64,000 nt of DNA from a virus. Lineage: Duplodnaviria > Caudoviricetes. Each line of letters starts with the position of its first letter. Positions within the stretch are counted from its first letter, which is position 1. Positions 9,250 through 58,863 of this stretch are shown in pieces. The stretch lies in IMG/VR virus record IMGVR_UViG_3300027833_000011, one strand, 5' to 3'. A program made the position numbers and the translations under genes. The notes under the pieces are model-generated. The model saw nothing but the letters and a program-made list of their open reading frames with translations, did no database searches and was not told the origin of the DNA.

Positions 9250-9990
9250 ATGAAGATTGATAGAGTTTATGTCATCACAATGGATATGAGTGATGAATAC
9301 AAAGATGAGTTATTTGAGAGAGTGTTAAATTTACCACTACCTTCAAATACACCTGTTGAGTTTAAACAAGGGTTTCCAGGTAAGGATTTATTGGAAAGAC
9401 CTGAAGACTTTCCTGAGTATCGTATATACCCACATTGGAACCTTAACAACCCAGAGGGTTGGTGGTGGTGGCAAAGACCAGCGTTATCAGGTGAAGCGGG
9501 TGGTATGATATCACACACAATGTGTTGGGAAGATGCGTATGAGAAGGGGTATGAAAATATTATGATTATTGAAGATGACTTTACGGTCGAAGAACCTATT
9601 GATTGGGGTATCTTTAAAGAACTTGATGGTTATGAATGGGATTTATGTTTAATGGCTCACAATTCATTACACGAACATTTTTCAGATATTATGAAACCTT
9701 TAAATATTGGTAGAGAACATTTTATCAGACCAACGTTCTTTTATAATACTCATACTTATATACTTTCTTCGGGAGGTATTAAGAAATTAGTTGAGGACCA
9801 TTTAGATGTGTTAAAACAAAATATTATAGTATCTGACGAATTTTTATCTGCAGTTACTTCATCACATCCAAGACCTGATTTAAGAGAGATGTACATAACT
9901 AATATGTCAGCGGTTGCTACAAAAGTTAATTATACAGGACAAACAAGAAGTGAAGGTTTGGGTAATTCTTTAACCGAGACTGAAAAGTAA
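9250..9990 (+). CDS. Glycosyltransferase family 25, resembling the C-terminal domain of collagen galactosyltransferase COLGALT
   Basis: VYVITM, RPALSGEAGGMISHTMCW, IMIIEDD, WDLCLM, YNTHTYILS..G.KKL, SDEFLS...HP. Confidence 0.75.
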   Translation: MKIDRVYVITMDMSDEYKDELFERVLNLPLPSNTPVEFKQGFPGKDLLERPEDFPEYRIYPHWNLNNPEGWWWWQRPALSGEAGGMISHTMCWEDAYEKGYENIMIIEDDFTVEEPIDWGIFKELDGYEWDLCLMAHNSLHEHFSDIMKPLNIGREHFIRPTFFYNTHTYILSSGGIKKLVEDHLDVLKQNIIVSDEFLSAVTSSHPRPDLREMYITNMSAVATKVNYTGQTRSEGLGNSLTETEK

Positions 9991-42027: not shown

Positions 42028-45000
42028 ATGGCATTAAGACAATTAGGATTATTCCAACTTAATACGAACCCAGGAACACAAGAAATTGATTTAGGTACTA
42101 CCGCTAATTTTCTTGATGAAATATTCGTTGATTCCATATCCGCAAACACTTATTTAGGTGACGGGTCTGGACTTACAATCGACGGTATTGATTCATTAGT
42201 CGATAGTCTTTCAATTGAAACTTCTGCAAGAACAGGAGCTGACACATCGTTAGCTACAAAAATTTCTACAGACGTTCAATCGGCAATCGACAACTTAGTA
42301 GATGGTGCACCAAGTGCGTTAGATACTTTAGTTGAGTTAGCATCCAAAATCGGTGAAGGTTCCATTAGTGAAGCAAACATCGTAGCTGAGATTAACTCAG
42401 TAGGTGTACGTGTAACTAATGAAGCGGCAACAAGATTGTCAGCGGATGGTTCGTTGGCGACTTTGATTGGACAAGTTTCAACGGGTGCGTCTTCAAACTT
42501 AGCGTCTGAGATTCTACAAACTGGTAATGAAGTAAATTCATTAACGACTAGAATTTCAACAGAAGAATCTGTTAGAGACACACAGGTAACATCATTAGCC
42601 AATGAGATTACAGGTGAGGTTACTGCTGATATTACTTCGGTTGATACAAGAATCACAGGAGTTGAGGGAGATTTAACTTCAGTAGAGACAAGATTGTCAA
42701 CTGAAGAGTCTACTATGGTGGTAACTGTAAATAGTTTAGGTACCGTAGTCGACGGAGACATATCGTCTGTAGTAACTAAGATAGGGGATGAAGAATCTTC
42801 TAGAATAGGGGCTGATAATTCATTAGCAACGTTAATATCTACGGAAGTAGTTAATAGAGAGAGTGAAGATAACGTATTAGACGGTAAAATAACCACAGAG
42901 GCATCATCAAGAGGTGTTGCTGATAATTCTTTAGGAGATAGAATTGACACCTTAGAAGATAATCCATATGACGATTCATCAATCAACACAAGAGTTGGTG
43001 GTGTTGAATCAAGTGCGAGTTCTTTAGGAGCAAGAATTTCATCTGAAGAGGTAGTTAGATTATCTAAGGATAATTCTATTGCGACAATTGCGGGACAAAA
43101 TACTTCAAGTATTAATACGGCATCGACATCATTAACGTCTAGAATTTCTACTGAAGAAATTGCAAGAACTACGGGTGTAAATTCTGTAAATGATAAAGTA
43201 GGTGTTGAGGCTTCAAGTAGAGTTGTAAAGGATGATTCATTAGACGCTAAAATAGATTCGGAAATATCAACACTTAAATTAGATGTTGTACAGAATGAAT
43301 CAGACATTAGTGGTGAAGAGACAATAAGAATTCAGAAAGATAACTCATTAGATAGTAAAATATCTACTGAAGTTGTTACTTTAGAGGCTAAAGACACATC
43401 TTTAGCAACTAGAATAGGTGTTGAAGAAGGTGCAAGAGCATCGTCTGACTCAGCATTAAGTAATGAGATTTCGGTTCAAGCATCGATGAGACAATCAGCG
43501 GATACGGCAATTTCAAGTCAATTAATATCAGATATTTCTGTATTAGTTGATGCTGATGATAATTTATCATCTGACATTGTTGCTGAAGAGTCTTTAAGAT
43601 ATGCGGCGGATGATTCATTAACAACTAGAGTTAGTAGTGTTGAATCGGAAGTTTCATCAAATAAAGCGTCTACAGACACTAGAGTGTTAACAGTTGAAGG
43701 TCAAATAGGTGGTATCGATGTTGATATTACAGGTTTAACTTCAGGAGTTAATAGTTTAGATAGTAAAATTGATTCAGAAATATCTTCTGAGGTAGTTGCA
43801 AGAAATTCAGCAATCGTTGTCGCTAAAGACGAAATCATTAACGGTGCTGGTGACGCTTACAATACGTTAAGTGAGTTACAAACTGCGTTAGAAGATAACG
43901 ACGGTGATATAACAACTATATTAACGGCACAAGGTTCTATTAATACTAGAATAACAACTGAAGAGTCTACTAGACTTTTAAAAGATAGTATTTTAGAGTC
44001 TGAAATTGATAATAAAACTAATTCGTTAGAAACTAGAATCAGTACATTAACATCTAAAGATGTTGTAATTGATTCAGATATAACGTCTGAAGTATCTTCA
44101 AGAGTGTCAGGAGATTTATCACTTAACAATAGAATATCAAGTGAAGAATCGGCTAGAGAATCTGCAGTTACTGCGATTAATGAAGCTGCTTACGATGATT
44201 CATCAATCAACACAAGAGTTGGTGGTGTTGAATCAGACTTATCTTCTGAAATTAGTTCAGAGGCGTCATCAAGAGTATTAGGTGACAATTCATTAAATAC
44301 TAAGATTGGTTCAGTATCTACGGCATTGGCGTCAGAGATAGGAACAACAAACGGTGAAATCACATCATTAAACACAAGAGTTTCTAACGAAGAAGATAAT
44401 TCTACGACATTAGAGAATTCTTTAGTGGGTGTTGATACATCATTACATAGTAGAATTTCTTCTGAAGAGGTTACTAGGAGTTTAGCAGTAAGTTCATTAC
44501 ATGTTAAATCGGGTAACATCACGGGAGATGTGACTTCTATAGCAAATAGAATACAATCTGAAGAGTCTACAAGACTATCAAGTGATAACATATTAACAGG
44601 TTCAGTTGGTTCAATCAATACGAGAGTTGCAACTGAAGAAGGTAAGTCGACATCATTAACAACGAGAGTTAGTAATGTAGAAAGTGATTTAACTTCAGAA
44701 GTTAATTCGGTTGACACAAGAATTGATAATATTGAGGCGGCTGCTTACGATGATTCATCTATCAATACAAGAATTGGTGGTGTTGAATCAGACTTAACAA
44801 CGGCTGAAGGTTCTTTAGAAACAAAAATAACTGCAGAGGAGAGTTCAAGAGTATTAGGTGATTCATCACTTACTACTGTAATTAGTACTCTACAATCGGA
44901 CTTAAATACTGAAATTGCATCTACAAATACGGAGATGACATCTTTAGATACGAGATTATCTACGATTGAATTGGATGACGAAACTGTTGAGTCTTCATTA

Positions 45001-48000
45001 GAAACTAAAATTGGTGGAGTATCTGCTGATTTAGCGACTGAGGTTGGAGTAAGAGGTACGGCTGACACTTCATTAACGAATAGAATTGCTAGTGAAGAAA
45101 CAAACAGAGTTTCTGCGGATTCATCTTTAGCTCTTTTAATCGGGGGTAACGCATCTGACATTAGTTCACTTAACGAATTATCGGGAGTGTCAATAACAGG
45201 TGACGTATTAAAAGTATCAGGTTCAAATCAAGCGTTTACTGTTGATTTATCACAGTTTAACGATAATACAGACAATTACATAACAGGAGCGGCACTTTCA
45301 GGTGATGTATTAACATTATCAAGAGTATCAGGTTCTGTAACGGTAGATTTAGGTCAATATCAAACCTCATCAGAGGTGGCATCACAAATAACAACGGCAA
45401 TCACAGGTTACGCTACTGAGAATTATGTTGATAGTGCAATAGCACCATTAGCAGTAAAAACGGTAGTATCTGCGGCTGACGCTTCATTAAACACTAAGAT
45501 AGATTCTTTAGACTCAAGTTTAGATTCAGAGATTTCATCTAGAATTGAAAGTGAGGATTATGTTATCGGTGCTGCGATGTCTAATGACACATTAAAATTA
45601 ACAAGAGCGAAAGGTGGTGTAGTATCAGTAGACCTGTCACAATTTATAGATGACACTGACACAGATAACTATATTACAGGAGCTGCGATATCAGGTGATA
45701 TACTAACATTAAGTAGACAAAACGGAGACGTTACGGTTAACTTAGGTCAGTATCAAACTTCTTCAGAAGTTGCATCACAGATAGCAACAGGTCTTGTAGG
45801 TTACGCTACTGAATCATATGTTGGTTCGGCAGTTTCACCTAAAGCTAATAAAACATATGTTGATTCACAAGACGCGTCATTAGCGACTAGAATAGATTCA
45901 ATTGATACGACAATCGCATCACACAATGAATTAGACGGAACAAGTTTCGTAGCTAACATACTTACAGTTTCAGGTTCTGAGGCTGACTACTCAGTAGATT
46001 TAAGTTCATTAGCAACAGACGTAAATGTTTCTTCAGGTTCATACAATTCAACAACAGGTACGTTAACATTAACGAAATCTGACGGTGGAACTGTTGCGGT
46101 AAGTAACTTCTATGTAGATGTAAACGGAGATAACTTTATCACGGGAGCAAGTGTAGTAGGTCAAAACTTAATCTTATCAAGACAAGGGTTAACGGATATT
46201 ACGGTATCTTTAGCTGGTTTTGTAACATCAGGTGAATTAACAACGGCAATTTCAGACTTCAAGTCAAGTTCAGCAATCGCAACTGATATATCATCAGCGG
46301 TGGCTACTGAATCAGGAATCAGAAGTTCGGCTGACAACTCATTAGCAGTTGCCATATCAGCGGTACAATCAGATTTCGATTCAATACCTGAAGATGAAAA
46401 TGATTATATTTCATCAGCGGCAATTGTAAGTAACAATTTAGTTATTACAAGAACTGACGGTGGGACAGTAACAGTTAGTTTAGCACAATTTATGGATGAC
46501 ACTAATACGGATAACTTCGTAACAGGTGCGTCTTTATCGGGTGATACATTAACATTAACGAGAGACTCAGGTAACTCTATTACAGTTAACTTAGGTCAAT
46601 ATCAAACTTCTTCGGAAGTAGGTGGACAAATAACATCAGCATTGGCGGGTTACGCTACTGAGAGTTATGTTGGTAGTGCAATTGCACCATTAGCGGTAGC
46701 ATCGGCAGTATCTACGGCTGATTCATCATTGAACACTAAGATAGACTCTTTAGAATCAAGTTTAAATTCTGAGGTCTCGTCAAGAATAGCAACCGAAGAT
46801 TATTTAGTCGGAGCTACAATGTCTAACGACACATTAAAATTAACAAGAAACTTAGGTGGTATTGTAACAGTTGACTTAGGTCAATTTAAAGACAATACTG
46901 ACAACTTCCTAACAGGAGCTTCTTTATCGGGTGATTTACTTACTCTAACAAGAAACTCAGGTGGTTCATTATCTGTTAACTTAGGACAATATCAAACATC
47001 GTCTGAAGTGGCATCACAGATAACCTCAGCAATTGCTAATTACGCTACTACATCATATGTTAATACTGCTGATACTTCATTGGCAAGTAAAATAACATCT
47101 GTAGACACAAGATTCGGTGGCTTACCATCTGAAGATTATGTAACAGGAGCGGTTATGTCTAACGACACATTAAAATTAACAAGAGCACAAGGTGGTGTTG
47201 TATCAGTAGACTTAAGTAGATATACTACGGCTTCTGAATTAACATCGGCTTTATCTCCATACGCAACCTCAGCGGTTACTTCTACACAGATTTCATCAGG
47301 AATCCAAACAGAAACAAACAGAGCGGTTGGTAAAGAGAACTCATTACATACAAGGATTGGTCAAGTATCAACGGCTTTAGGAACTGAGATTGGAACAACA
47401 AATAGTGAAGTTACTTCATTACATACGAGAGTTGGTTCAGTATCAACGGTAGCGTCGACAAATACTACGAACATTGGTTCAGTATCAGCACTAACAGGTT
47501 CATTAAGTTCAGATATCTCTACATTAGAGGCGTCTGGTTACGATGACTCATCTTTAGCAACAAGAATCTCAACAGAAGAGTCGACAAGGTTAGTTAAAGA
47601 TAATTCATTAAACACTAAAGTTGGTTCAGTATCTACGGCAATAGCTAACGAGATAAATTCAACTAATGGTGATATCACATCATTAAACACGAGAGTGGGT
47701 AATGAAGAAAGTACGAGAAGTACTAAAGACAGTTCATTAACAACTGCCTTATCTGCGGAAACCGCAGCAAGGATAGCTGGTGATGGTAGTTTAGGTACAC
47801 GTATTGATGGTATAAATGAATTAGACGGGTTAGTATTCTCATCTAACGTTTTAACGGTAGGTGGTTCTGAAAGTGACTTCTCTGTAGATTTAGGAGTATT
47901 AGCTTCTGATGTAACAGTTACAGGTGGTACATATAATTCAGGAACACAAACATTAAACTTAACGAAGAGTAATAATGATACTATCGCAATCTCAGGATTT

Positions 48001-48849
48001 GCTATTGACACTGACACTGATAACTTTGCTGATTCAGTATCATTCAATTCGACTAATGGTGTATTAACCATTGGTAGAACAGGGACGTTATCTGACATAT
48101 CAGTTGATTTAGATGGTAGATACTTAGTAGATACTGTAGACAACAACAACTATGTAGATGGTGCGAGTTTCAATACGACTAACGGTGTCTTAACAATAGG
48201 AAGGTCAGGTTCTTTATCTGATATTAATATTGATTTAGACGGAAGATTTACAGATAATGGTTACGCAGACGCAATGAACCAACATGTAAAAACTAACTCA
48301 GCGGTAACGTTCAGTACGGTTAATACAGGTCAGGGAGCGACTGAAGTACATTTAATGAATCAAAATGTTAGAACATCTGACACGGTAACATTCAATCAAG
48401 TTAACGCTAGTATTGGTGATATCGATGAAATCAGAATTGATACTACAACGTTAACAAGTTCATTAGGTGTCTTATCTATAAACACTGATGTGGAAATCAC
48501 GGGAGAGTTAAGAGCAACAAGTAAGTCGTTCTTAATCGACCATCCTACTCAACCTAACATGAAGTTACAATATGGTAACTTAGAGGGACCTGAGCATGGA
48601 GTCTACATTAGAGGTAAAGTAGGTGCTGACGGTATGATTGAATTACCAGAATATTGGACTGAGTTAGTACATGAAGATTCTATAACAGTACAGTTAACTG
48701 CTATTGGAGCACCAACAACACACTATGTTAAGTCTATTGAAGACAACAAAGTAGAAGTTGGTTCTGAAAGTGGTATAGTAAATGCTTTCTACACGATAAA
48801 CGCTGAGAGAAAGGATGTTTATAAATTAAGAGTTGAATTTCCAGCTTAA
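42028..48849 (+). CDS. Giant (2273 aa) tail fibre-like protein: coiled-coil shaft, repeated beta modules, C-terminal KSF.IDHP..EGPE domain
   Basis: LVDGAPSALDTLVELA; E..R..D.SL repeats; DNY.TGA.LSGD.LTL modules; KSFLIDHPT..LQYGNLEGPEHGVYIRG. Confidence 0.8.
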   Translation: MALRQLGLFQLNTNPGTQEIDLGTTANFLDEIFVDSISANTYLGDGSGLTIDGIDSLVDSLSIETSARTGADTSLATKISTDVQSAIDNLVDGAPSALDTLVELASKIGEGSISEANIVAEINSVGVRVTNEAATRLSADGSLATLIGQVSTGASSNLASEILQTGNEVNSLTTRISTEESVRDTQVTSLANEITGEVTADITSVDTRITGVEGDLTSVETRLSTEESTMVVTVNSLGTVVDGDISSVVTKIGDEESSRIGADNSLATLISTEVVNRESEDNVLDGKITTEASSRGVADNSLGDRIDTLEDNPYDDSSINTRVGGVESSASSLGARISSEEVVRLSKDNSIATIAGQNTSSINTASTSLTSRISTEEIARTTGVNSVNDKVGVEASSRVVKDDSLDAKIDSEISTLKLDVVQNESDISGEETIRIQKDNSLDSKISTEVVTLEAKDTSLATRIGVEEGARASSDSALSNEISVQASMRQSADTAISSQLISDISVLVDADDNLSSDIVAEESLRYAADDSLTTRVSSVESEVSSNKASTDTRVLTVEGQIGGIDVDITGLTSGVNSLDSKIDSEISSEVVARNSAIVVAKDEIINGAGDAYNTLSELQTALEDNDGDITTILTAQGSINTRITTEESTRLLKDSILESEIDNKTNSLETRISTLTSKDVVIDSDITSEVSSRVSGDLSLNNRISSEESARESAVTAINEAAYDDSSINTRVGGVESDLSSEISSEASSRVLGDNSLNTKIGSVSTALASEIGTTNGEITSLNTRVSNEEDNSTTLENSLVGVDTSLHSRISSEEVTRSLAVSSLHVKSGNITGDVTSIANRIQSEESTRLSSDNILTGSVGSINTRVATEEGKSTSLTTRVSNVESDLTSEVNSVDTRIDNIEAAAYDDSSINTRIGGVESDLTTAEGSLETKITAEESSRVLGDSSLTTVISTLQSDLNTEIASTNTEMTSLDTRLSTIELDDETVESSLETKIGGVSADLATEVGVRGTADTSLTNRIASEETNRVSADSSLALLIGGNASDISSLNELSGVSITGDVLKVSGSNQAFTVDLSQFNDNTDNYITGAALSGDVLTLSRVSGSVTVDLGQYQTSSEVASQITTAITGYATENYVDSAIAPLAVKTVVSAADASLNTKIDSLDSSLDSEISSRIESEDYVIGAAMSNDTLKLTRAKGGVVSVDLSQFIDDTDTDNYITGAAISGDILTLSRQNGDVTVNLGQYQTSSEVASQIATGLVGYATESYVGSAVSPKANKTYVDSQDASLATRIDSIDTTIASHNELDGTSFVANILTVSGSEADYSVDLSSLATDVNVSSGSYNSTTGTLTLTKSDGGTVAVSNFYVDVNGDNFITGASVVGQNLILSRQGLTDITVSLAGFVTSGELTTAISDFKSSSAIATDISSAVATESGIRSSADNSLAVAISAVQSDFDSIPEDENDYISSAAIVSNNLVITRTDGGTVTVSLAQFMDDTNTDNFVTGASLSGDTLTLTRDSGNSITVNLGQYQTSSEVGGQITSALAGYATESYVGSAIAPLAVASAVSTADSSLNTKIDSLESSLNSEVSSRIATEDYLVGATMSNDTLKLTRNLGGIVTVDLGQFKDNTDNFLTGASLSGDLLTLTRNSGGSLSVNLGQYQTSSEVASQITSAIANYATTSYVNTADTSLASKITSVDTRFGGLPSEDYVTGAVMSNDTLKLTRAQGGVVSVDLSRYTTASELTSALSPYATSAVTSTQISSGIQTETNRAVGKENSLHTRIGQVSTALGTEIGTTNSEVTSLHTRVGSVSTVASTNTTNIGSVSALTGSLSSDISTLEASGYDDSSLATRISTEESTRLVKDNSLNTKVGSVSTAIANEINSTNGDITSLNTRVGNEESTRSTKDSSLTTALSAETAARIAGDGSLGTRIDGINELDGLVFSSNVLTVGGSESDFSVDLGVLASDVTVTGGTYNSGTQTLNLTKSNNDTIAISGFAIDTDTDNFADSVSFNSTNGVLTIGRTGTLSDISVDLDGRYLVDTVDNNNYVDGASFNTTNGVLTIGRSGSLSDINIDLDGRFTDNGYADAMNQHVKTNSAVTFSTVNTGQGATEVHLMNQNVRTSDTVTFNQVNASIGDIDEIRIDTTTLTSSLGVLSINTDVEITGELRATSKSFLIDHPTQPNMKLQYGNLEGPEHGVYIRGKVGADGMIELPEYWTELVHEDSITVQLTAIGAPTTHYVKSIEDNKVEVGSESGIVNAFYTINAERKDVYKLRVEFPA

Positions 48850-48897: not shown

Positions 48898-51714
48898 ATG
48901 GCTAAGAACATAATTATCACACCGAATTTAACAGGGACAGATAATCCAAACATAGCTATCACCAATGGAAATGAAGAGATTGTCATCGGCTTAAACGCCG
49001 GTGGCTCTCTTATCTTCCAAGATGGTGGTGGAGCTACGTTATTGGAACTGGACTCTAATGGTAACGCCACAGTAAAGAACCAAAACCTTAAAACTAATCA
49101 GTTTACAGTAAACTCACAAGACGCTTTCGACGAGTCCCTTTATGTAGGTCCATCAGGACACTTAAAAGGACAGAAAGGTATCAAAGGAAACATAGGACCC
49201 ACCGGAGCTCAAGGAGCGAAAGGAGTAATTGGGGCAAAAGGTTTGAAAGGATACATTGGTTCCGTAGGGGTGGTAGGTGCCCAAGGTGCTCAGGGTACTC
49301 AAGGACAAGTAGGTGCAACTGCACCACAAGGTCCAAAAGGCCCAATAGGAAATGCAGGTCCAATAGGACCCGTAGGACCAAAAGGAGGACAAGGTACTCA
49401 AGGACCTAAAGGTTACGTAGGTAATCAAGGGAGTAAAGGAGTAACAGGACCTAAAGGTCTAAAAGGAGGAGTAGGTCTACAAGGACCAAAAGGTGCTTCA
49501 CCTCAAGGACCACAAGGACCGCAAGGACCTCAAGGACCACAAGGACCGCAAGGACCTAAAGGTTATAAAGGGATAAAAGGTGCGACAGGGAATGTCGGAC
49601 CAACAGGTTATAAAGGTATCGCGGGTACTAAAGGTAACGAAGGACCCATAGGGGACAGAGGAGCCACAGGACTTAAAGGATACAAAGGTATTACAGGACC
49701 TAAGGGTCAGACGGGTAATAAAGGACCCAAAGGTAATGCCGGTGACCAAGGACCTACTGCATCGAAAGGTGTGTTAGGTAATAAAGGTACTAAAGGTAAT
49801 AAAGGTGTCATTGGCTCGAAAGGGTATAAGGGCAACAGAGGAACTCAAGGACCAAAAGGATATGAACCGAAAGGACCGAAAGGATACCAAGGACCGAAAG
49901 GATACAAAGGTATCAAAGGAAATAAAGGTATTAAAGGTATTACAGGACCAGGTGGACCGAGAGGTATACAAGGTGGTGGTGGTGACTTAGGACCTACGGG
50001 AACTGCAGGTATCAACGGACCAAAAGGACCAAGAGGTGTTCAAGGACCTGTCGGTACTCAAGGACCAAAAGGTTATAAGGGTGTCAAAGGTATCAAAGGA
50101 CCTCAGGGTACAAAAGGACCTCAGGGAGACCAAGGAGGACCAGGTGCTAAAGGTGTTATTGGAGGCCAAGGTAATAAAGGTATAAAAGGTAACGCAGGAC
50201 CAAAAGGTTATATTGGTTCTTCTATTAAAGGTAATAGAGGAGGACAAGGACCAACAGGTTATAAAGGTATCAAAGGTAATAAAGGTGTTAAGGGTATCAA
50301 AGGAAACTTTGGACCACAAGGACCTACAGGACTAAAAGGAAACCAAGGAGGACAAGGTGCTAAAGGATATGCTGGAGCTACAGGAACTAAAGGTAACCGA
50401 GGTGGTACTGGAGGTTCTGGAGACAAAGGTGTTACAGGACCAGGTGGACCAACAGGTGGAAAAGGTATTAAAGGTAACATAGGTGGCCAAGGAGCAAGAG
50501 GTAATACAGGAGCCCAAGGTTATCAAGGAGCAAGAGGTACTACAGGACTTAAAGGAAATAAAGGTATTAAAGGTTATCAAGGACCAGGTGGACCAACAGG
50601 TGGTAAAGGTATTAAAGGTAATATCGGACCAGGTGGACCAACAGGGCCAGGAGGTGATAGAGGACCAGGAGGTGATACAGGTGGTAAAGGTTACAGAGGT
50701 GACCAAGGACCTGTAGGACAGAAAGGTTATAAAGGAGCACCAGGTGGTAAAGGTATCAAAGGTAACATAGGTGGTCAAGGAGCGAGAGGTCCACAAGGAG
50801 GACAAGGGTCTCAAGGACCACGAGGTGGAACAGGACCAAAAGGACCTAAAGGTTACAAAGGTAATGCTGGTAACAAAGGTTATCAAGGTGCTAAAGGTAT
50901 CAAAGGTAATAAAGGAACTAAGGGTTATACAGGTACTCAAGGGTTGAGTGGTGACAAAGGTTATATAGGTGGACCAGGAGGACAAGGACCAGCTGGAGGT
51001 AATAATACGACTAAAGGTGGTAGAGGAGCTACAGGTTCTTCTCCAAAAGGTTATATTGGAGCACAAGGTAACAAAGGTGTTAAAGGTTTTATAGGTAATC
51101 AAGGACCGGGAGGTGACATATATTTGGTATCAAATTTCCCTGATGCACCAAGTGGACCAACAGGTGATAGAGGACCTACAGGTTCTAATGGTACATCTAA
51201 AGGACCAAAAGGATATGCAGGACCTTTAGGTGCTAAAGGTAATCAAGGACCAAAAGGACCAACGACTTTCGGAAGCAAAGGTAAGAGAGGTGCAAAAGGT
51301 ACTGGAGGACCAAAAGGACCTACAGGTTATAAAGGTATTAGAGGGCCGAATGGTTATAAAGGACCAAAAGGACCTACAGGAAATACATCTGATGCAAGAT
51401 TGAAAGAAAACATTAAAGAGTTAACAGGTGGTATTGAAAAAATATCAAAACTTAGAGGTGTTAAATTTGATTGGGTAGAAGGTTCTATACATAATGTACA
51501 CGAAGTTAAAGGTAGAGATGCTGGTTTTATCGCTCAAGAAGTTAATGAGGTTTTACCTGAGTTGACTAATATAATGAATGAAGAGAATGGTACGATGCAA
51601 GTTAACTACGCTAAGATGACTTCAGTATTAATTTCAGCGCTGAGAGAACAGAGGGAAATCGTTAAAGAATATACTGATAAACTTGAAATAATTAAATTAA
51701 ATCGTTCGAAATAA
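48898..51714 (+). CDS. Collagen-like fibre protein 1 with a C-terminal peptidase S74 intramolecular chaperone
   Basis: Gly-X-Y from ~49147 to ~51384; SDARLKENI..LRGVKFDW..GFIAQEV..VNY. Confidence 0.92.
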   Translation: MAKNIIITPNLTGTDNPNIAITNGNEEIVIGLNAGGSLIFQDGGGATLLELDSNGNATVKNQNLKTNQFTVNSQDAFDESLYVGPSGHLKGQKGIKGNIGPTGAQGAKGVIGAKGLKGYIGSVGVVGAQGAQGTQGQVGATAPQGPKGPIGNAGPIGPVGPKGGQGTQGPKGYVGNQGSKGVTGPKGLKGGVGLQGPKGASPQGPQGPQGPQGPQGPQGPKGYKGIKGATGNVGPTGYKGIAGTKGNEGPIGDRGATGLKGYKGITGPKGQTGNKGPKGNAGDQGPTASKGVLGNKGTKGNKGVIGSKGYKGNRGTQGPKGYEPKGPKGYQGPKGYKGIKGNKGIKGITGPGGPRGIQGGGGDLGPTGTAGINGPKGPRGVQGPVGTQGPKGYKGVKGIKGPQGTKGPQGDQGGPGAKGVIGGQGNKGIKGNAGPKGYIGSSIKGNRGGQGPTGYKGIKGNKGVKGIKGNFGPQGPTGLKGNQGGQGAKGYAGATGTKGNRGGTGGSGDKGVTGPGGPTGGKGIKGNIGGQGARGNTGAQGYQGARGTTGLKGNKGIKGYQGPGGPTGGKGIKGNIGPGGPTGPGGDRGPGGDTGGKGYRGDQGPVGQKGYKGAPGGKGIKGNIGGQGARGPQGGQGSQGPRGGTGPKGPKGYKGNAGNKGYQGAKGIKGNKGTKGYTGTQGLSGDKGYIGGPGGQGPAGGNNTTKGGRGATGSSPKGYIGAQGNKGVKGFIGNQGPGGDIYLVSNFPDAPSGPTGDRGPTGSNGTSKGPKGYAGPLGAKGNQGPKGPTTFGSKGKRGAKGTGGPKGPTGYKGIRGPNGYKGPKGPTGNTSDARLKENIKELTGGIEKISKLRGVKFDWVEGSIHNVHEVKGRDAGFIAQEVNEVLPELTNIMNEENGTMQVNYAKMTSVLISALREQREIVKEYTDKLEIIKLNRSK

Positions 51715-54662
51715 TGGCACTACAAAAAGGAAACAAAGGGATACATATATTCCCAAATAGAGTAGGTACGAATGAACCTAAAATAGAACTTTATCAAGGT
51801 TCTACTACGTATACACTAGAGGTAGAAGACAATACTAATGATGTTGTTATATTCTTAAATGGTACAGAGGTTGCTCGTATGAAATCATCAGGTGATGAAA
51901 GATTTCAAATTGTTGGAGACCTAATAATTGACGGAGATTTAAGAGACTCAAGTGGTAACGTAATCGTAACTCAATCAGGTATATACAACGGAACATTTCA
52001 AGGTACTACAGGTGACAGAGGACCTCAGGGACCTCAAGGTAACCAAGGACCTAAGGGAATAAAAGGACCAAAAGGTAACTTTGGACCTACAGGTCAGAAA
52101 GGACTTAAAGGTATTGCTGGTAATAAAGGTAATAAAGGTACTAAAGGTAATAATTCACCTAAAGGTGTTATTGGAGATAACGGACCAAGAGGAAATGACG
52201 GACCGCAAGGACCGCAAGGACCTCAAGGTGACAAGGGTATTAAAGGTAACTTAGGTGATAAGGGTGTAAAAGGTAACCGTGGATACCAAGGTGGAAACGG
52301 AGACAAAGGACCTATCGGAGCTAAAGGTTATAAAGGAACCAAAGGTATTAAAGGTAACGTTGGTAACAAAGGTATCAAAGGAGTTAAAGGTAATATCGGA
52401 GGTAACGGAGATTTAGGACCAACAGGTTCTAAAGGACTTAAAGGTGTTTTAGGTGTTAAGGGTTATACCGGACAACAAGGACCACAAGGACCTCAAGGAC
52501 CTAAAGGTTATCAACCAACAGGACCAATTGGACCAAAAGGTAATAGAGGATATCAAGGTGCTATTGGTGACAAAGGTTACCAAGGAGGACAAGGTGTCTC
52601 ACCTAAAGGACCAAAAGGTGGGAATGGTGATACAGGACCACAAGGACCTCAGGGTAATAAAGGACCGACAGGACCTAAAGGATATAAAGGTGTCGAAGGT
52701 GGACAATCATCTTCGGGTGTAGGTGTTATTACAGGACCTACAGGGCAGAAAGGTATCACAGGACCGCAAGGACCTACAGGACTGCAAGGACCAATTGGAA
52801 CACAAGGACCTCAAGGACCTAAGGGTTATAGAGGTGCTACGGGTCAGAAAGGATATGCTATCAATGATGACCCTACAACTTCGGGGCTAACGGCTCCTAA
52901 AGGACCAAAAGGACCACAAGGTTACATTGGTGTTACAGGACCAAAAGGTGGTACCGGTGATGGTGGAGATAGAGGACCTCAGGGAACTACAGGTAATGCT
53001 GGTTCAAAAGGTCAGATAGGGACACAAGGTGCTAAAGGTTATAAAGGTAATATTGGTGGACCTGGAGATAAAGGTTATACAGGTGGAAAAGGACCTAACG
53101 CAGCTGCGGGACCAAAAGGACCTAAAGGTAATGTTGGAAACAAAGGTGTAACAGGACCAGTTGGACCACAAGGACCTACAGGACCAATTGGGACTAAAGG
53201 TAATATTGGTAATAAAGGTGTTGTAGGAACCAAAGGTAACAAAGGTATCAAAGGACAAAAAGGAGCATCTCCTCAGGGACCTAAGGGTTACAGAGGACCA
53301 CAAGGTGGTCTAGGAAGTCAAGGACTACGAGGTGGAACAGGACCAAAAGGACCAAAAGGTTACAAAGGTAACAAAGGTGTTAAGGGTTATTTAGGTACCA
53401 AAGGAAACAAAGGTGTCAAAGGATATCAACCAGGTGGACCGCAAGGACCTACAGGGACTAAAGGAAATAGAGGTACTACGGGACCACAAGGACCTACAGG
53501 ACCTCAAGGAAATCAAGGTGGACAAGGTGGTCAGGGACCAAAAGGATATATAGGACCTTCATATAAAGGACCTACAGGTTATAAAGGTGTGGTATCAACT
53601 ATAGGAGACAGAGGTGCTACGGGACCAAAAGGGCCAAAAGGTTATAAAGGTAACGCAGGACCAAAAGGTTATAAAGGTATCAAAGGAAACAAAGGTGTCA
53701 AAGGATATCAACCACAAGGACCTACAGGAGATAAAGGGTACACAGGTGCTAAAGGACAAAAAGGTAATGTTGGACCTACAGGTCCTACAGGACCAACAGG
53801 TTCTAATGGTGCTAAAGGTAACAGAGGTGGTTTAGGACCTCAGGGACCAAAAGGTGTTAAAGGTAATAGAGGTAATACAGGACCAAAAGGACCGAAAGGA
53901 AACAAAGGTACCAAAGGAAACAAAGGTTACAAAGGTAATATCGGACCAGGTGGACCAACAGGACCAAAAGGCGTTAAAGGTAATAGAGGTAACTTTGGAC
54001 CAAACGTAGGACCAAGAGGACCTCAAGGTGGACAAGGACCAAGAGGATACCAAGGTAATTTTGGACCTCAGGGACCAACAGGTGGACAAGGTGGTTCAGG
54101 AGCCGGTGGAGGAACAGGACAAAAAGGTGGTACTGCCGCGGGTCTTAAAGGACCAAAAGGTTACGCAGCGTCTATTTCTTCTTTTGGTGGTTCAGGTGGA
54201 CCAACAGGTGCACAAGGTTTAAGAGGACCTCAAGGTTACCAAGGTTTAAGAGGACCTACAGGAGCTGCCGGTGGAGGTGGAGGAAGTGGACCAACAGGTG
54301 GTGGTTCATCATCCGAAGGACCATCCCTTGGTCGCTCTGATAAGAGACTTAAGTTAGACGTTAACTTAATATCTAATCCATTACAAAAAATCCAAGAACT
54401 AATACCTGTCGAATATGATTGGACAGATAAAGGTTTAGAGGATGGTCTTGTAAGTGGAGCCTACGGTAAACACGATATTGGTTTTGTTGCTCAAAACGCT
54501 AAAAAAGTGATACCAACTTTAGTACATACTAAAGACACGGGTTACTTAACATTGTCATACTCTAGAGTTGTTCCATTAATCATTGAAGCGATTAAGGAAG
54601 AACAGAAAAACATTGATATGTTAGAGGAAGAAATAAATAAACTTAGACTAAACAACAATTAA
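51714..54662 (+). CDS. Collagen-like fibre protein 2 with an S74 chaperone
   Basis: Gly-X-Y ~52002-54330; SDKRLK..PVEYDW..GFVAQ..LSY. Confidence 0.92.
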   Translation: MALQKGNKGIHIFPNRVGTNEPKIELYQGSTTYTLEVEDNTNDVVIFLNGTEVARMKSSGDERFQIVGDLIIDGDLRDSSGNVIVTQSGIYNGTFQGTTGDRGPQGPQGNQGPKGIKGPKGNFGPTGQKGLKGIAGNKGNKGTKGNNSPKGVIGDNGPRGNDGPQGPQGPQGDKGIKGNLGDKGVKGNRGYQGGNGDKGPIGAKGYKGTKGIKGNVGNKGIKGVKGNIGGNGDLGPTGSKGLKGVLGVKGYTGQQGPQGPQGPKGYQPTGPIGPKGNRGYQGAIGDKGYQGGQGVSPKGPKGGNGDTGPQGPQGNKGPTGPKGYKGVEGGQSSSGVGVITGPTGQKGITGPQGPTGLQGPIGTQGPQGPKGYRGATGQKGYAINDDPTTSGLTAPKGPKGPQGYIGVTGPKGGTGDGGDRGPQGTTGNAGSKGQIGTQGAKGYKGNIGGPGDKGYTGGKGPNAAAGPKGPKGNVGNKGVTGPVGPQGPTGPIGTKGNIGNKGVVGTKGNKGIKGQKGASPQGPKGYRGPQGGLGSQGLRGGTGPKGPKGYKGNKGVKGYLGTKGNKGVKGYQPGGPQGPTGTKGNRGTTGPQGPTGPQGNQGGQGGQGPKGYIGPSYKGPTGYKGVVSTIGDRGATGPKGPKGYKGNAGPKGYKGIKGNKGVKGYQPQGPTGDKGYTGAKGQKGNVGPTGPTGPTGSNGAKGNRGGLGPQGPKGVKGNRGNTGPKGPKGNKGTKGNKGYKGNIGPGGPTGPKGVKGNRGNFGPNVGPRGPQGGQGPRGYQGNFGPQGPTGGQGGSGAGGGTGQKGGTAAGLKGPKGYAASISSFGGSGGPTGAQGLRGPQGYQGLRGPTGAAGGGGGSGPTGGGSSSEGPSLGRSDKRLKLDVNLISNPLQKIQELIPVEYDWTDKGLEDGLVSGAYGKHDIGFVAQNAKKVIPTLVHTKDTGYLTLSYSRVVPLIIEAIKEEQKNIDMLEEEINKLRLNNN

Positions 54663-54664
54663 TC

Positions 54665-57505
54665 ATGGCTAAGAATATATTAATCACACCAAATAGAACA
54701 GGAACAGAGTCTCCTGAGATATTGTTAGTAAATAACGGTACTGTAGACTCAATCTTTACAATCGGTGAGAATCTTCCATTACTTATCGGTGAAGACGGAA
54801 CTCCGGCTGCTAGTTTTAGTTCAAACGGGTTTTTAACCCCTAACGGATTTAAAATTACGGGGTCGTTAAAAGTAAGAAATGGGAGTGGAACATCCGTTAC
54901 TGTATTAGATAATACGGGAACATGGACAGGTTCATTCACAGGAATAAAAGGATACCAAGGACCGCAAGGATATAAAGGTCAAAAAGGACCACAGGGTAAT
55001 ACGGGTGACTTTGGACCACAAGGTGACAGAGGTAACCAAGGTGGTTTTGGAGACAAAGGTTATCAAGGTGGACCTGGTGATAAAGGATATCAAGGTAACA
55101 TAGGACCAAAAGGACCAAAAGGTGTTATTGGAGATAAAGGTTTCAAAGGACTTAAAGGTAATTTAGGAACTCAGGGACCCGGTGGACCAATAGGTTCTCA
55201 GGGAGCACAAGGACCTACAGGGCCGAAAGGATACATTGGTAACCAAGGTGGTATAGGACCTCAGGGTAATACAGGACCAACGGGTGACGTAGGATATACG
55301 GGACCAAAAGGTGTTGTAGGACCAGGTGGACCTACAGGGCCAAGAGGTAACCAAGGAACACAAGGTATTTCACCTAAAGGACCAAGAGGTCCTCAAGGTG
55401 AAAAAGGTGTAACAGGAACTAAAGGTTTCAAGGGTACTAAAGGTATTACCGGTGGAAGAGGACCTCAGGGTCAGACTAACACAACCAAAGGACCGATAGG
55501 TTATAAAGGTGTTATAGGTACCAAAGGACAGAAAGGTATTATTGGTTCAACTTCACAACAAGGAGACCAAGGAAACCAAGGACCTCAAGGACCGGGTGGT
55601 AGTAAAGGAGTCATAGGTGCACAAGGTGCTACAGGTGATATCGGTGTTACAGGACCAAAGGGACTTAAAGGTAATGTTGGTGCTAGAGGATACCAAGGAG
55701 GTCAAGGAGGCCAAGGAGCTCAAGGTGGTACCACTAAAGGTAATAAGGGTATTACAGGACCTAAGGGTTATAAAGGTGGAAAAGGACCTGCAGTTGCTAA
55801 TGGACCAAAAGGACCAATAGGAGGAAAAGGTATTAAAGGTGTTTCTAATGTTAGAGGAGCACAAGGAAACCAAGGACCAAAGGGTTATATCGGTATTAAA
55901 GGTGTCAAAGGTGGTGTTGGAGATAAAGGTATTACAGGACCGGGTGGACCAACAGGACCTCAAGGTGTTCAAGGTGTTCAAGGTGATAGAGGTGGAACGG
56001 GTACTTCTTATACGGGTAATATTGGAGACAAAGGTTACCGAGGAGCACAAGGATACCAAGGACCTCAAGGTGGACAAGGACCTCAAGGTGGTAATACTAA
56101 AGGTTACGTAGGTAATCAAGGACCTACAGGACCAGGTGGACCGCAAGGACCTACAGGTCAAAAAGGAGCTACAGGTAATACCGGTGGTGGTGGTGATAAA
56201 GGTTACATTGGAGTTAAAGGAAACAAAGGTGTTAAAGGTTATCAACCACAAGGACCGGGTGGACCAACAGGACCACAAGGACCTACAGGACAAAAAGGTG
56301 TTACAGGACCTACAGGACAAAAAGGTGGACAAGGAAACCAAGGTGTTAAAGGTAATGTTGGTGGGAAAGGACCAAAAGGTTATCAACCACAAGGACCTCA
56401 AGGTAATAAAGGTATCAAAGGAAATAAAGGGGTAAAAGGTAATAAAGGGTACAAAGGTACCGCTACCGTTTCGTCTTTACCTAAAGGAGACAAAGGTCTT
56501 AAAGGATACAGACATTCTACAGGACCAAAAGGTTATCAACCACAAGGACCCGTTGGAGACAAAGGTTATACAGGTGGACCTGGTGATGGCGGACCTACAG
56601 GACCGGGAGGACCAACAGGTGGAAAAGGTGTTAAAGGTAACATAGGTGGTCAAGGTGCCAAAGGTAATGCTGGTGACACAGGTTATCAAGGAGCACAAGG
56701 ACCAAAAGGTGTTAAAGGTAATGACGTTTCTACTAAAGGACCTAAAGGTAATGTTGGAGCTAAAGGAGCTACAGGACCTACAGGACCAAAAGGTTATAAT
56801 GGACCAGGTGGAGACTTGGGTGACACACATCGAGGACCAAACGGACCTACAGGACCACAAGGTCCCCGAGGACCACAAGGTGGAGGTGGAGATAAAGGTT
56901 ATGCTGGATATACTCATTGGGTTAATTCAGGTAGTCCAAAACCGGTAGGACCTAAAGGTTTTAAAGGTACCAAAGGTGTCAAAGGATATACAGGACCTAA
57001 AGGTAATAGAGGTAATACAGGACCTAAAGGTTCTCAAGCACCACAAGGACCAAAGGGACTTAAAGGACCTTATACATTGGCGGCAACTCAAGGACCGATT
57101 GGTGACGCTGGAGCTTCAGGAAACACTAAAGGTTATAGAGGACTTCAGGGACCTAAAGGTTTTCGAGGAAACAAAGGTATTAAAGGATATGCCGGACCAG
57201 CTTCTGATAGAAGAGCTAAGACTAATGTTGAGTTAATTACTGATTCGTTAGACAAAGTATCTAAAATTAGAGGGGTTGAATTCCTATGGAAATCTGATTA
57301 TAAACCTAAAACTTTAGAAACACCAACGGATATTGGGGTTATTGCACAAGAGTTAAAAGAAGTCTTACCTGAATTAGTTATTGAAGGTAATGACGGATTC
57401 TTAAGAGTAAATTATCCACAAATCACATCTTTATTAGTCAATGCGTTTAACGAACAAAACAGTAAGTTAAATATGATTAAGAAAGATATCGATTCGATGT
57501 TATAA
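54665..57505 (+). CDS. Collagen-like fibre protein 3 with an S74 chaperone
   Basis: Gly-X-Y ~54941-57200; SDRRAKTNV..IRGVEF.W..GVIAQEL..VNY. Confidence 0.92.
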   Translation: MAKNILITPNRTGTESPEILLVNNGTVDSIFTIGENLPLLIGEDGTPAASFSSNGFLTPNGFKITGSLKVRNGSGTSVTVLDNTGTWTGSFTGIKGYQGPQGYKGQKGPQGNTGDFGPQGDRGNQGGFGDKGYQGGPGDKGYQGNIGPKGPKGVIGDKGFKGLKGNLGTQGPGGPIGSQGAQGPTGPKGYIGNQGGIGPQGNTGPTGDVGYTGPKGVVGPGGPTGPRGNQGTQGISPKGPRGPQGEKGVTGTKGFKGTKGITGGRGPQGQTNTTKGPIGYKGVIGTKGQKGIIGSTSQQGDQGNQGPQGPGGSKGVIGAQGATGDIGVTGPKGLKGNVGARGYQGGQGGQGAQGGTTKGNKGITGPKGYKGGKGPAVANGPKGPIGGKGIKGVSNVRGAQGNQGPKGYIGIKGVKGGVGDKGITGPGGPTGPQGVQGVQGDRGGTGTSYTGNIGDKGYRGAQGYQGPQGGQGPQGGNTKGYVGNQGPTGPGGPQGPTGQKGATGNTGGGGDKGYIGVKGNKGVKGYQPQGPGGPTGPQGPTGQKGVTGPTGQKGGQGNQGVKGNVGGKGPKGYQPQGPQGNKGIKGNKGVKGNKGYKGTATVSSLPKGDKGLKGYRHSTGPKGYQPQGPVGDKGYTGGPGDGGPTGPGGPTGGKGVKGNIGGQGAKGNAGDTGYQGAQGPKGVKGNDVSTKGPKGNVGAKGATGPTGPKGYNGPGGDLGDTHRGPNGPTGPQGPRGPQGGGGDKGYAGYTHWVNSGSPKPVGPKGFKGTKGVKGYTGPKGNRGNTGPKGSQAPQGPKGLKGPYTLAATQGPIGDAGASGNTKGYRGLQGPKGFRGNKGIKGYAGPASDRRAKTNVELITDSLDKVSKIRGVEFLWKSDYKPKTLETPTDIGVIAQELKEVLPELVIEGNDGFLRVNYPQITSLLVNAFNEQNSKLNMIKKDIDSML

Positions 57506-57528: not shown

Positions 57529-57558
57529 AAAACCCTCATCATAAAGATGGGGGTTTTT
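57529..57558 (+). terminator. Terminator closing the fibre operon
   Basis: aaaaccctcatc-ataaa-gatgggggtttttt. Confidence 0.8.
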
Positions 57559-57768: not shown

Positions 57769-58863
57769 ATGATGTTATTAAAAATGGTTAAGGAGATAAT
57801 AATGGACAACCTAAATGAAGGTACATCGTCCGATTATGAAACGCTTAGAAAAGTCTTTAAATATGATACCGAAAAGTTATACGGTTACTTACTTAAGAGA
57901 GGTGACTTAGACTCTTTTATTAATGACATTATCAAAGACGATAGTGACGAATCTAATGAGTTAATGAAAAATATTCTACACGGAATAATATCGGAGAAAG
58001 ATGTTGATTCGTTGTATAAATATACTTTACCGATTTTCTCTGACTTAATATTGAATCGTAATGAAATTATTATGGAATTAAACGGTAGAGAAGATTTGGC
58101 TAAATTCTTTTATCATGACAGTAGTATGTCTGAAGACACTACATCATCAATATTATCGGGGGAGTATGATGAACTTTTTTATAATGGATATAATTCAGGT
58201 AAAAGTGAAATGTTTTATTACCTTAGTGATTTAACTGACAAAAACATGAAATATTTAAAAGATTACATGGTCGATGAGGGGTTAAATAAAGAAGTCAATT
58301 ATAATGGAGATAACGAAGTATTAGAAGAATTGATTGGTAAGGATGATAATATCTTAACCAAAGACTGTTTTGATGAGATTTTTAGGAGTGAGGATAATAT
58401 AATTGATGCGTTATATAGTATTGATTTATTTGAAAGTATAGAAAACAATGTCTCTAACTCCTATGATAGAGCACAGATTGCTGCTATGGAAACTGAATTA
58501 TATAACAATCTAATGGGTTCTATTGAAGATTTTTTTGGTGGTCAGGGGGAATTTAAATACACAGAAAAGAGTGAATCATACAAACAGAAATATCCTGACA
58601 AAAATCACTCACCAACGACAACGTATGTGATAAAGATTTCGGAACAGTTATATTCTGATGTGATACATTGGTGGATTGAAGAAATCAGTGATTCCGGAAA
58701 TTCTATTGGATACTGGGGAGATTTTGAAGATGTATTAGAAGAATATTGTAATGACCATCTATCGTGGAGGGATTCAATGAGGTATAGTTTTCCTGAATAT
58801 GCTGACAGTAAACTATCTTCTGATTATATGAATGAATCTTTTATGGATGATTTATATTATTAG
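57769..58863 (+). CDS. Acidic hypothetical protein
   Basis: 364 aa, D/E/Y-rich; TATTTAT at 57758. Confidence 0.75.
   Translation: MMLLKMVKEIIMDNLNEGTSSDYETLRKVFKYDTEKLYGYLLKRGDLDSFINDIIKDDSDESNELMKNILHGIISEKDVDSLYKYTLPIFSDLILNRNEIIMELNGREDLAKFFYHDSSMSEDTTSSILSGEYDELFYNGYNSGKSEMFYYLSDLTDKNMKYLKDYMVDEGLNKEVNYNGDNEVLEELIGKDDNILTKDCFDEIFRSEDNIIDALYSIDLFESIENNVSNSYDRAQIAAMETELYNNLMGSIEDFFGGQGEFKYTEKSESYKQKYPDKNHSPTTTYVIKISEQLYSDVIHWWIEEISDSGNSIGYWGDFEDVLEEYCNDHLSWRDSMRYSFPEYADSKLSSDYMNESFMDDLYY

Follow-up and report, generated by a model that had tools for sequence, protein, structure and literature searches.

Three tandem genes, A, B and C, encode very long collagen fibers, each ending in its own Peptidase_S74 chaperone, in a 64,000-nucleotide stretch of DNA from a tailed phage (Caudoviricetes; IMG/VR record IMGVR_UViG_3300027833_000011). 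We analyzed this whole stretch and refer to it as the window. The three collagen spans are closely matched in length, and comparison with related phages indicates that selection keeps all three at one common length. Their interruption maps are chain-specific, and A, B and C probably form three separate homotrimers rather than one mixed helix.

Three tandem collagen genes with S74 chaperones

The three genes and their domains, from the calls of open reading frames (ORFs) and from domain matches, are as follows.

Fiber gene A, 48898..51714, + strand: 938 residues
A N-terminal domain, residues 1-90, nucleotides 48898-49167, + strand: predicted anchor
A collagen, residues 91-830, nucleotides 49168-51387, + strand: 236 triplets, 10 interruptions, one unbroken run of 86 triplets
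A S74 chaperone, from Ser831, nucleotides 51388-51711, + strand: abuts the collagen
Fiber gene B, 51714..54662, + strand: 982 residues
B N-terminal domain, residues 1-96, + strand
B collagen, residues 97-864, nucleotides 52002-54305, + strand: 238 triplets, 14 interruptions
B S74 chaperone, from Ser875, nucleotides 54336-54659, + strand: 10-residue spacer after the collagen
Fiber gene C, 54665..57505, + strand: 946 residues
C N-terminal domain, residues 1-92, + strand
C collagen, residues 93-846, nucleotides 54941-57202, + strand: 228 triplets, 18 interruptions
C S74 chaperone, from Ser847, nucleotides 57203-57502, + strand: abuts the collagen

Genes A and B overlap by 1 nucleotide, and 2 nucleotides separate B from C. 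The collagen spans, counted like the triplets and interruptions from maximal Gly-X-Y runs, are 740 (A), 768 (B) and 754 (C) residues. Each chain matches the Pfam Collagen family PF01391 (E values of 1e-61 to 1e-75; 204-248 bits against a cut-off of 27.2), and the glycine columns are 96% conserved among orthologs. The C-termini match Peptidase_S74 (PF13884) with 58.2 bits in A, 40.9 in B and 59.1 in C (cut-off 22; E values of 2.6e-10 to 5e-16). These domains start with SDARLK, SDKRLK and SDRRAK, respectively, and the Ser-x4-Lys spacing is intact in 18 of 18 homologs. Among solved structures, the S74 domain of A matches MYRF 7dc3 and the intramolecular chaperone of the long tail fiber 6f45 (E 5e-6); in the latter alignment, the Ser-Lys motifs coincide. 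At 0.286 nm per residue, the spans predict shafts of 212-220 nm. A value near 215 nm is an upper estimate, since it assumes a continuous helix, which a charge of about +80 per chain, few salt bridges and the lack of hydroxyproline may destabilize.

Much of what had been predicted from the letters of this DNA is borne out. The original prediction described three adjacent, tightly coupled genes for 938, 982 and 946 residues, with intact Ser-Lys dyads; the ORFs were confirmed on the + strand, and the three motifs stand where the S74 domains begin. The spans and the S74 matches support its fibers of about 200 nm, each with its own chaperone, and its helices of about 210-220 nm agree with our upper estimate. 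The matched lengths to which it drew attention are conserved in four related lineages and are repeated, at another length, in a distant clade. It was right that the collagen is long, but its range of 745-775 residues gives way to the measured values. The kinship that it saw between the N-termini of the first and third genes is real and extends to the second: all three N-termini are homologous, that of B having a 5-residue insertion after Met-Ala.

Conservation of the trio and of its length

Relatives were found by scanning metagenomes with the C-terminus of the 2273-residue protein encoded immediately upstream of A. Complete trios in the order A-B-C are present in four further marine lineages, in which the upstream neighbor is 96% (L021/L027), 86% (L022), 71% (L024) and 63% (L025) identical to that of the window. 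The collagen spans, in residues, are the following.

Window: A 740, B 768, C 754
L021: A 741, B 762, C 756
L022: A 735, B 749, C 748
L024: A 738, B 741, C 739
L025: A 737, B 742, C 737

Over the five lineages, the spans thus range from 735 to 741 residues in A, from 741 to 768 in B and from 737 to 756 in C. The remotest orthologs are 53-57% identical in the collagen, and the obligatory glycines make up a third of that identity. Orthologs are separated by up to 16 indel events, in which the inserted and deleted residues cancel, which leaves A with a net difference of no more than 6 residues. The A chains of the window and of L024, for example, differ by 7 indel events that amount to +27 and -29 residues (net -2), and those of L022 and L024 differ by +24 and -21 residues (net +3). 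No higher-order DNA repeat that would account for the equal lengths was found in the window, just short arrays with periods of 9-54 nucleotides. In the tree of S74 domains, the orthogroups A, B and C have ultrafast bootstrap values of 87, 99 and 97. In that of the N-terminal domains, A and B have values of 94 and 100, and C does not resolve as a group. Because the chains sort in this way, the triplication is older than these lineages.

A separate set of three tandem collagen-S74 genes, likewise headed by the N-terminal domain, occurs in a distant clade, represented by L001 and by L002 on a 184-kb viral contig. The spans in L001 are 1026, 1023 and 1018 residues (301, 302 and 298 triplets) after removal of one 167-residue non-collagen insert. 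Three matched fibers occur at two lengths in two clades. Long branches keep the tree from pairing the trio of the window one-to-one with that of L001. Carriers of the N-terminal domain outside the trios are built differently: one (P0012) has about 160 residues of collagen, and another (P0035) has a 654-residue non-collagen body and no collagen shaft. Thus, length is not fixed by the family as such. Selection for one common length of all three fibers is what this comparison of sequences indicates.

The L001 collagens (L001 5548-17404) have further peculiarities. They follow an 11-residue lattice of three triplets plus a 2-residue insert, with 37-39 two-residue interruptions in each of the three chains, and a super-repeat of about 132-144 residues that ends in A-P-A or A-P-D. 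The 167-residue insert of gene 1 lies near the start of the collagen and has no Pfam match. In L002 (1620-14031), the first two genes of the trio are each split across reading frames, and their S74 parts stand in separate frames of 355 and 276 residues; the split frames could be an assembly error in repetitive DNA or real frameshifts.

Interruption maps of the three chains

In the alignments of orthologs, interruptions of the Gly-X-Y pattern are conserved in position and type in all five lineages at 7 sites in A, 10 in B and 14 in C. Examples are the 11-residue break YLVSNFPDAPS of A, HWVNSGSPKPV of C and an almost invariant 14-residue break of B (INDDPTTSGLTAPK). Between chains, the coincidence of interruptions is at chance level. 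In permutation tests with N- or C-terminal anchoring, all p values for the window exceed 0.15. In the relatives, 72 tests gave a few nominal p values, which fall in L024 and L025 (lowest 0.009) and none of which survives correction for multiple tests. The coincidence among the L001 paralogs was significant at a tolerance of 2 and was rejected as evidence of register, since the 11-residue lattice inflates the test.

In a mixed helix, the unbroken run of 86 triplets in A would oppose 6-7 breaks in each of B and C (+14 and +30 residues). The spacers between collagen and S74 are 0, 10 and 0 residues for A, B and C in the window, 0, 92 and 0 residues in L024, and 98, 0 and 0 residues for genes 1, 2 and 3 of L001. 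Such inequality is awkward for three S74 domains that are to form one trimer and register one helix. The N-terminal domain of L001 gene 2 has 49 residues, and those of its neighbors have 93 and 89. All chains are basic (+68 to +94, pI 10.2-10.6), and there is therefore no charge complementarity; mixing would relieve no repulsion. The extra domains before S74, of 92 residues in B of L024 (L024 14476-17595) and of 98 Cys-rich residues in gene 1 of L001 (5548-10023), have no Pfam match.

The original prediction had raised the possibility of an ABC heterotrimer, to be judged by aligning the interruptions across the chains, with interruptions out of register counting against it. They are out of register, which by its own measure tells against this half of the prediction, as do the unequal spacers and the lack of charge complementarity. 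It is quite likely that A, B and C form three separate homotrimers and not one mixed helix, and we regard an ABC heterotrimer as improbable.

The N-terminal domain

A word-indexed protein search with the N-terminal domain of A found nothing, and tblastn with that of C against phage records gave no match. An exhaustive profile search with the domain of A returned 35 matches in 1.84 billion representatives, mostly fragments. The domain heads a 337-residue short collagen with S74 in P0012 and the 654-residue non-collagen protein P0035. A small metagenomic contig (L011 673-3322) carries two unequal tandem genes with the same N-terminal domain and different bodies, one for a 337-residue short collagen with S74 and the other for a protein of more than 548 residues that consists of collagen, a globular part and collagen. 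Three long metagenomic proteins of 1298-2351 residues (P0014, P0015 and P0025) match the N-terminal-domain profile 5-7 times consecutively. This pattern suggests that the domain arose from a repeating beta unit of fibers or is able to serve as one.

The monomer model of the domain has a predicted local distance difference test (pLDDT) value of 73. Modeled as three copies, the domain of A gave an intertwined trimer with an ipSAE of 0.83, compared to 0.16 for the best of 3 controls. Three runs agreed in at least 70% of the contacts, and the partner pLDDT was at least 69. In the calibration of such models, 20 of 30 proteins solved as same-chain pairs attained this mark, against 1 of 23 single-chain structures; for the A trimer, this calibration is approximate because of the three copies per job and the custom alignment. 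The model supports self-association of the A domain, and mixed trimers remain compatible with it. A faint similarity of the domain to triple-beta-helix fibers and spikes lies within noise and was not used.

Composition of the shaft and lysine-modifying enzymes

Lysine occupies 85 (A), 86 (B) and 73 (C) Y positions, which is 32-36% of them, and 0-1 X positions. Proline accounts for 26-31% of the X positions and is almost absent from Y. The collagens of A, B and C have no cysteines, and the three chains have net charges of +74 to +94. Lysine at Y is the best-conserved non-glycine class among distant orthologs (53%). The pairing of Lys or Arg at Y with the acidic residue after the next glycine (K/R-Gly-D/E) is strongly depleted, with 10 pairs observed against about 55 expected over the nine chains of the window, L024 and L025, and 0-3 observed against 4-9 expected per chain in 9 of 9 chains. 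This depletion indicates that the lysines are kept free instead of serving salt bridges. Asp/Glu-Lys inside one triplet shows no depletion. The net charge per chain is +68 to +94 at about 740 and at about 1020-1190 residues alike (18 chains), and charge density therefore seems to vary more than the charge per fiber.

The window encodes two candidate transferases for these lysines, as separate genes 16 kb apart.

LH3/R699-type collagen glucosyltransferase, 26196..27602, + strand: 468 residues; glycosyltransferase (GT) and accessory domain, without the hydroxylase domain
GT25 glycosyltransferase, 9250..9990, + strand: PF01755, 37.1 bits against a cut-off of 24

Human LH3 (E 1e-55) and Mimivirus R699 (E 4e-51) both align along the length of the former, which retains the DSYD metal site and a poly-Asp loop (DDDQLYYT). 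On this basis it probably modifies the Y-position lysines of the fibers. The best solved relatives of the GT25 protein are the catalytic domain of the human procollagen galactosyltransferase COLGALT1 (E 7e-7). Metagenomic proteins of about 720 residues fuse a PLOD-type GT to GT25, and in others of about 692 residues its partners are methyltransferase domains. Besides the trio, the relative G001 encodes the GT (E 4e-70) and a PLOD-type hydroxylase domain whose match to those of animal PLOD has an E value of 5e-30 (PF25238 and PF03171). In L001, a 2-oxoglutarate (2OG) oxygenase is encoded 2.6 kb from the trio; it has no homolog in the window.

The two-domain transferase, with GT and accessory domain, was not found in deposited phages. 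The few cyanophages with the GT half are those whose tail fiber S74 domains are closest to that of A. Among them, the cultured Synechococcus phage S-CAM9 (L115, NC_031922.1 27398-36254) encodes a 1830-residue 'tail fiber protein' with a 59-triplet collagen segment and an S74 end, in which lysine occupies 34% of Y over its 65 triplets. The collagen-S74 fiber gene is followed by one small ORF, two 2OG-Fe(II) oxygenases and a 613-residue PLOD-GT-like protein, and S-PRM1 and S-8S53 share the spacing of about 2.2 kb seen in S-CAM9. By gene order and similarity, S-CAM9 is an independent cultured example of the association between fiber and modifying enzymes.

Genomic context

The G+C content of the window is about 33%, with 41-45% in the collagen genes, and nearly all genes lie on one strand. 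Phage-type functions encoded in the window include an SbcC-like nuclease, ClpP, a sigma-70 factor, DnaJ, thioredoxin, amidases and a glucosaminidase endolysin. Megablast of 24 kb of the window against 50,697 phage records gave no match. Related contigs reach 171-184 kb, one of them being estimated as 60% complete, which points to a large, probably jumbo, marine phage. The features around the trio are these.

Acidic fibrous protein, 42028..48849, + strand: 2273 residues, immediately upstream of A with a 48-nucleotide gap
Intrinsic-terminator-like hairpin, 57529..57557, + strand: 12-bp stem and then a T run, 24 nucleotides past the stop codon of C
Acidic protein, 57769..58863, + strand: 364 residues, pI 4.2, net charge -45

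The trio stands at the end of a series of large acidic ORFs, which encode 851, 293, 838, 476 and 2273 residues, all with a pI of about 4.1. No terminator-like site was found in the 48-nucleotide gap between the last of these and A, and the hairpin downstream of C probably ends the transcription unit that contains the trio. The 2273-residue protein has a short match to a PHROG 'minor tail protein' (E 1e-7), and in its C-terminus (48250-48846) the last ~120 residues are the module phrog_17490/28536. This module ends giant fibrous proteins of up to 3453 residues across dozens of metagenomic and viral contigs. No Pfam family and no solved relative was found for the protein or its C-terminal module. 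ORFs that adjoin the phrog_17490 module in remoter phages (L047-L054) had looked collagen-like and were dropped, as they are Gly-rich non-collagen proteins. The 364-residue acidic protein follows the trio in L021, L022, L024 and L025 (86-38% identity) and is near the trio in L001. It has no family match and no usable ESM Atlas match, and it might associate with the polycationic fibers or assist their assembly.

Proposed assembly of the fibers and alternative readings

On balance we find it reasonably probable that the trio makes three distinct homotrimeric fibers of about 212-220 nm that are anchored, cleaved, glycosylated and used in adsorption in the following way. Our confidence in this joint statement is lower than in the homotrimers themselves, because it includes the inferred steps of anchoring, cleavage, glycosylation and function. 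The ~90-residue beta-rich N-terminal domain would trimerize and anchor the fiber to the virion, as its modularity and the model suggest. The site may be a tail or baseplate fiber module, which we favor over the head. In the shaft of about 740-770 Gly-X-Y residues, the breaks conserved in each fiber type probably act as hinges. By analogy with the S74 family, the chaperone would trimerize, set the register, zip the helix from the C-terminus and then cleave itself off at the Ser-Lys dyad. Such cleavage would leave a bare collagen tip in A and C, a 10-residue tail in B and a knob of 92-98 residues in some orthologs. The enzymes and the composition of the shaft suggest that the Y-position lysines are hydroxylated and glycosylated by a phage lysyl hydroxylase, the GT25 protein and the LH3/R699-like enzyme, which would yield glycosylated hydroxylysine as in Mimivirus and animals. 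Speculatively, the products would be long, flexible, sticky, sugar-coated adsorption whiskers for attachment to anionic cell surfaces or particles, and the length that they have in common may be matched to some virion dimension.

Several points weigh against this proposal. The equal length, fixed order and translational coupling of the three genes are equally what a heterotrimer would need. Mixed trimers may be possible, since the three chains have homologous S74 domains and homologous N-terminal domains, and our view of which chains associate draws on sequence and one model. The model of the N-terminal domain has no recognizable solved fold: a Foldseek search of the PDB had no match at E <= 0.001, and the best VIA-align Z score, 5.8, lies within noise. 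A triple helix with about +80 per chain and no hydroxyproline may be unstable over its full length. There is no PLOD-type lysyl hydroxylase within the 64-kb window. The presence of the fibers in virions is predicted from the genes, and their assignment to the tail is weakly suggested by the gene neighborhood, the short PHROG match (E 1e-7) and the cyanophage annotation. The length class of L001 could stem from an independent triplication rather than from concerted change.

The equal lengths might instead be structurally required because the three fibers are parts of one assembly, either an ABC heterotrimer or a nine-chain tuft held by the N-terminal domains; we hold this to be rather doubtful. 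Were it true, the first form would be the first heterotrimeric collagen outside animals and the tuft would imply that the length is matched to a dimension of the virion, for instance that of the tail, and either would mean animal-type Glc-Gal-hydroxylysine chemistry on a collagen of vertebrate fibrillar length. In the heterotrimer, each gene would supply one chain, as in C1q or type IV collagen, and the diverged S74 and/or N-terminal domains would select composition and register. Collagen spans that agree within 0.5% in L024, L025 and L001, the conserved trio and order with coupled start and stop codons, and a few breaks at similar height (at offset 51 in A and B and, for A and C, a break of 11 residues that lies about 90-100 residues away from the C-terminal end) are what such a fiber would show. 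Nevertheless, the conserved interruption maps are chain-specific with a register no better than chance, the 86-triplet run of A would face 6-7 breaks in each partner, and chains that all carry +68 to +94 offer no charge complementarity. The S74 domain of B in L024 lies 92 residues from the collagen while those of A and C abut it, the domain of L001 gene 1 likewise lies 98 residues away, and the N-terminal domain of L001 gene 2 is about half as long as the others (49 residues against 93 and 89). Both modules also occur on single fibers of quite different build. The heterotrimer is accordingly a poor prospect. That the lengths were merely inherited from a tandem triplication, without selection, and that the fibers are redundant or host-range variants is, in our estimate, just as improbable. 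A, B and C are paralogs, and since the orthology to the longer L001 trio is left open by the tree, that clade may have triplicated independently. Against this reading, orthologs of about 55% identity differ by up to 16 indel events whose residues cancel, to a net change of at most 6 in A, although repetitive Gly-X-Y DNA is expected to drift in length, and other members of the family span from about 50 to about 300 triplets.

Two further readings keep the homotrimers or the charge and change the site. The fibers could be homotrimers on the capsid or neck, a 'hair' like the Mimivirus fibrils or the phi29 head fibers that serves in particle adhesion or shielding. This is unlikely in our view, although it would suit fibers that have no distal receptor-binding domain once S74 is released, that are polycationic and probably glycosylated like the Mimivirus fibrils, and whose N-terminal domain has no recognizable tail-adaptor fold. 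The trio comes last in a series of large acidic fibrous genes, of which the nearest upstream has the 'minor tail protein' match, the closest S74 relatives in cultured phages are annotated as tail fiber proteins, and some orthologs have a pre-S74 domain of 92-98 residues as in receptor-binding fibers; all of this speaks for the tail. It is also conceivable, at very long odds, that the chains are packaged, polycationic DNA-binding or internal proteins and not external fibers, given that they carry +74 to +94 each with a pI of 10.2-10.6 among neighbors that all have a pI near 4.1. An S74 chaperone and a modular N-terminal adaptor are, however, hallmarks of external fibers and spikes, the same N-terminal domain heads the 654-residue non-collagen protein P0035, and the phage encodes glycosylation enzymes. 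Separate homotrimeric fibers, placed on the tail or baseplate, remain our preferred reading.

Significance

Phage fibers that combine collagen with a self-cleaving S74 domain are already known, and a single gene of the trio would be ordinary. What is new is the conserved trio with length homeostasis, in two clades and at two lengths, together with interruption maps that are conserved and specific to each chain, the finding that salt-bridge pairs are depleted and the negative result on the heterotrimer. The shafts of 740-770 residues, and of about 1020 in the related clade, come close to vertebrate fibrillar collagen. Three paralogs that stay at one length despite deep divergence and compensating indels point to a length constraint. 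The polycationic shaft, with lysine at a third of the Y positions, avoids the usual stabilizing salt bridges, in a genome that also encodes lysine-modifying enzymes of the animal type. If folded and modified as proposed, the fibers would offer a tractable bacterial-virus model for register selection, interruptions and hydroxylysine glycosylation in collagen, and recombinant collagens of great length that bring their own folding domain could possibly be obtained from them. As regards phage biology, they suggest adsorption through charge and glycans rather than through a distal receptor-binding domain.

Comparison with known systems

Fibers with collagen-like repeats and a C-terminal Peptidase_S74 domain have been reported in polinton-like viruses too (PMC12220804). 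The fibers of the window share with collagen-S74 fibers of the endosialidase CIMCD type the order of N-terminal adaptor, trimeric shaft and C-terminal S74 domain with a Ser-Lys dyad. They differ in that the collagen is the whole shaft, at 740-770 residues, compared to 59 triplets in S-CAM9 and about 160 residues in P0012, in the extremely cationic character of this shaft, and in the occurrence of three paralogs of conserved equal length. In A and C, moreover, S74 abuts the collagen directly, so the mature tip would have no globular domain.

The closest parallel in chemistry is Mimivirus, which has eight collagen genes, some in tandem, and whose R699 was shown experimentally to be a collagen galactosyl-hydroxylysine glucosyltransferase (PMC9546862; Luther et al. 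2011, cited there). In both viruses, there are several collagen genes (in Mimivirus L71, the R238-R241 cluster and others), some of them in tandem, and lysine is frequent at Y. The modifying enzymes of Mimivirus are L230, R655 and R699. The R699-type glucosyltransferase (E 4e-51) and GT25 are encoded in the window, and the PLOD-type hydroxylase is in the relative G001. Unlike Mimivirus, the virus of the window is a tailed phage with a bacterial host, its enzymes are unfused single-function genes, and its collagens carry the phage-type S74 and a phage adaptor domain. We know of no description of length matching among the Mimivirus collagens.

The EPclA-type tail proteins of E. coli O157 prophages (PMC3368898) and the streptococcal Scl proteins are likewise prokaryotic or phage collagens without hydroxyproline, and those are homotrimeric. 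They are far shorter, have other trimerization domains and rely on charge pairs, whereas in the window the K-G-D/E pair is depleted and lysine-modifying enzymes are encoded. Complement C1q resembles the trio in its three adjacent paralogous collagen genes, matched collagen lengths and C-terminal trimerization domain. The chains of C1q have a single stalk interruption at the same level. In the fibers of the window, in contrast, the interruption maps are chain-specific and out of register, the spacers are unequal, and the sequences are unrelated to those of C1q outside Gly-X-Y.

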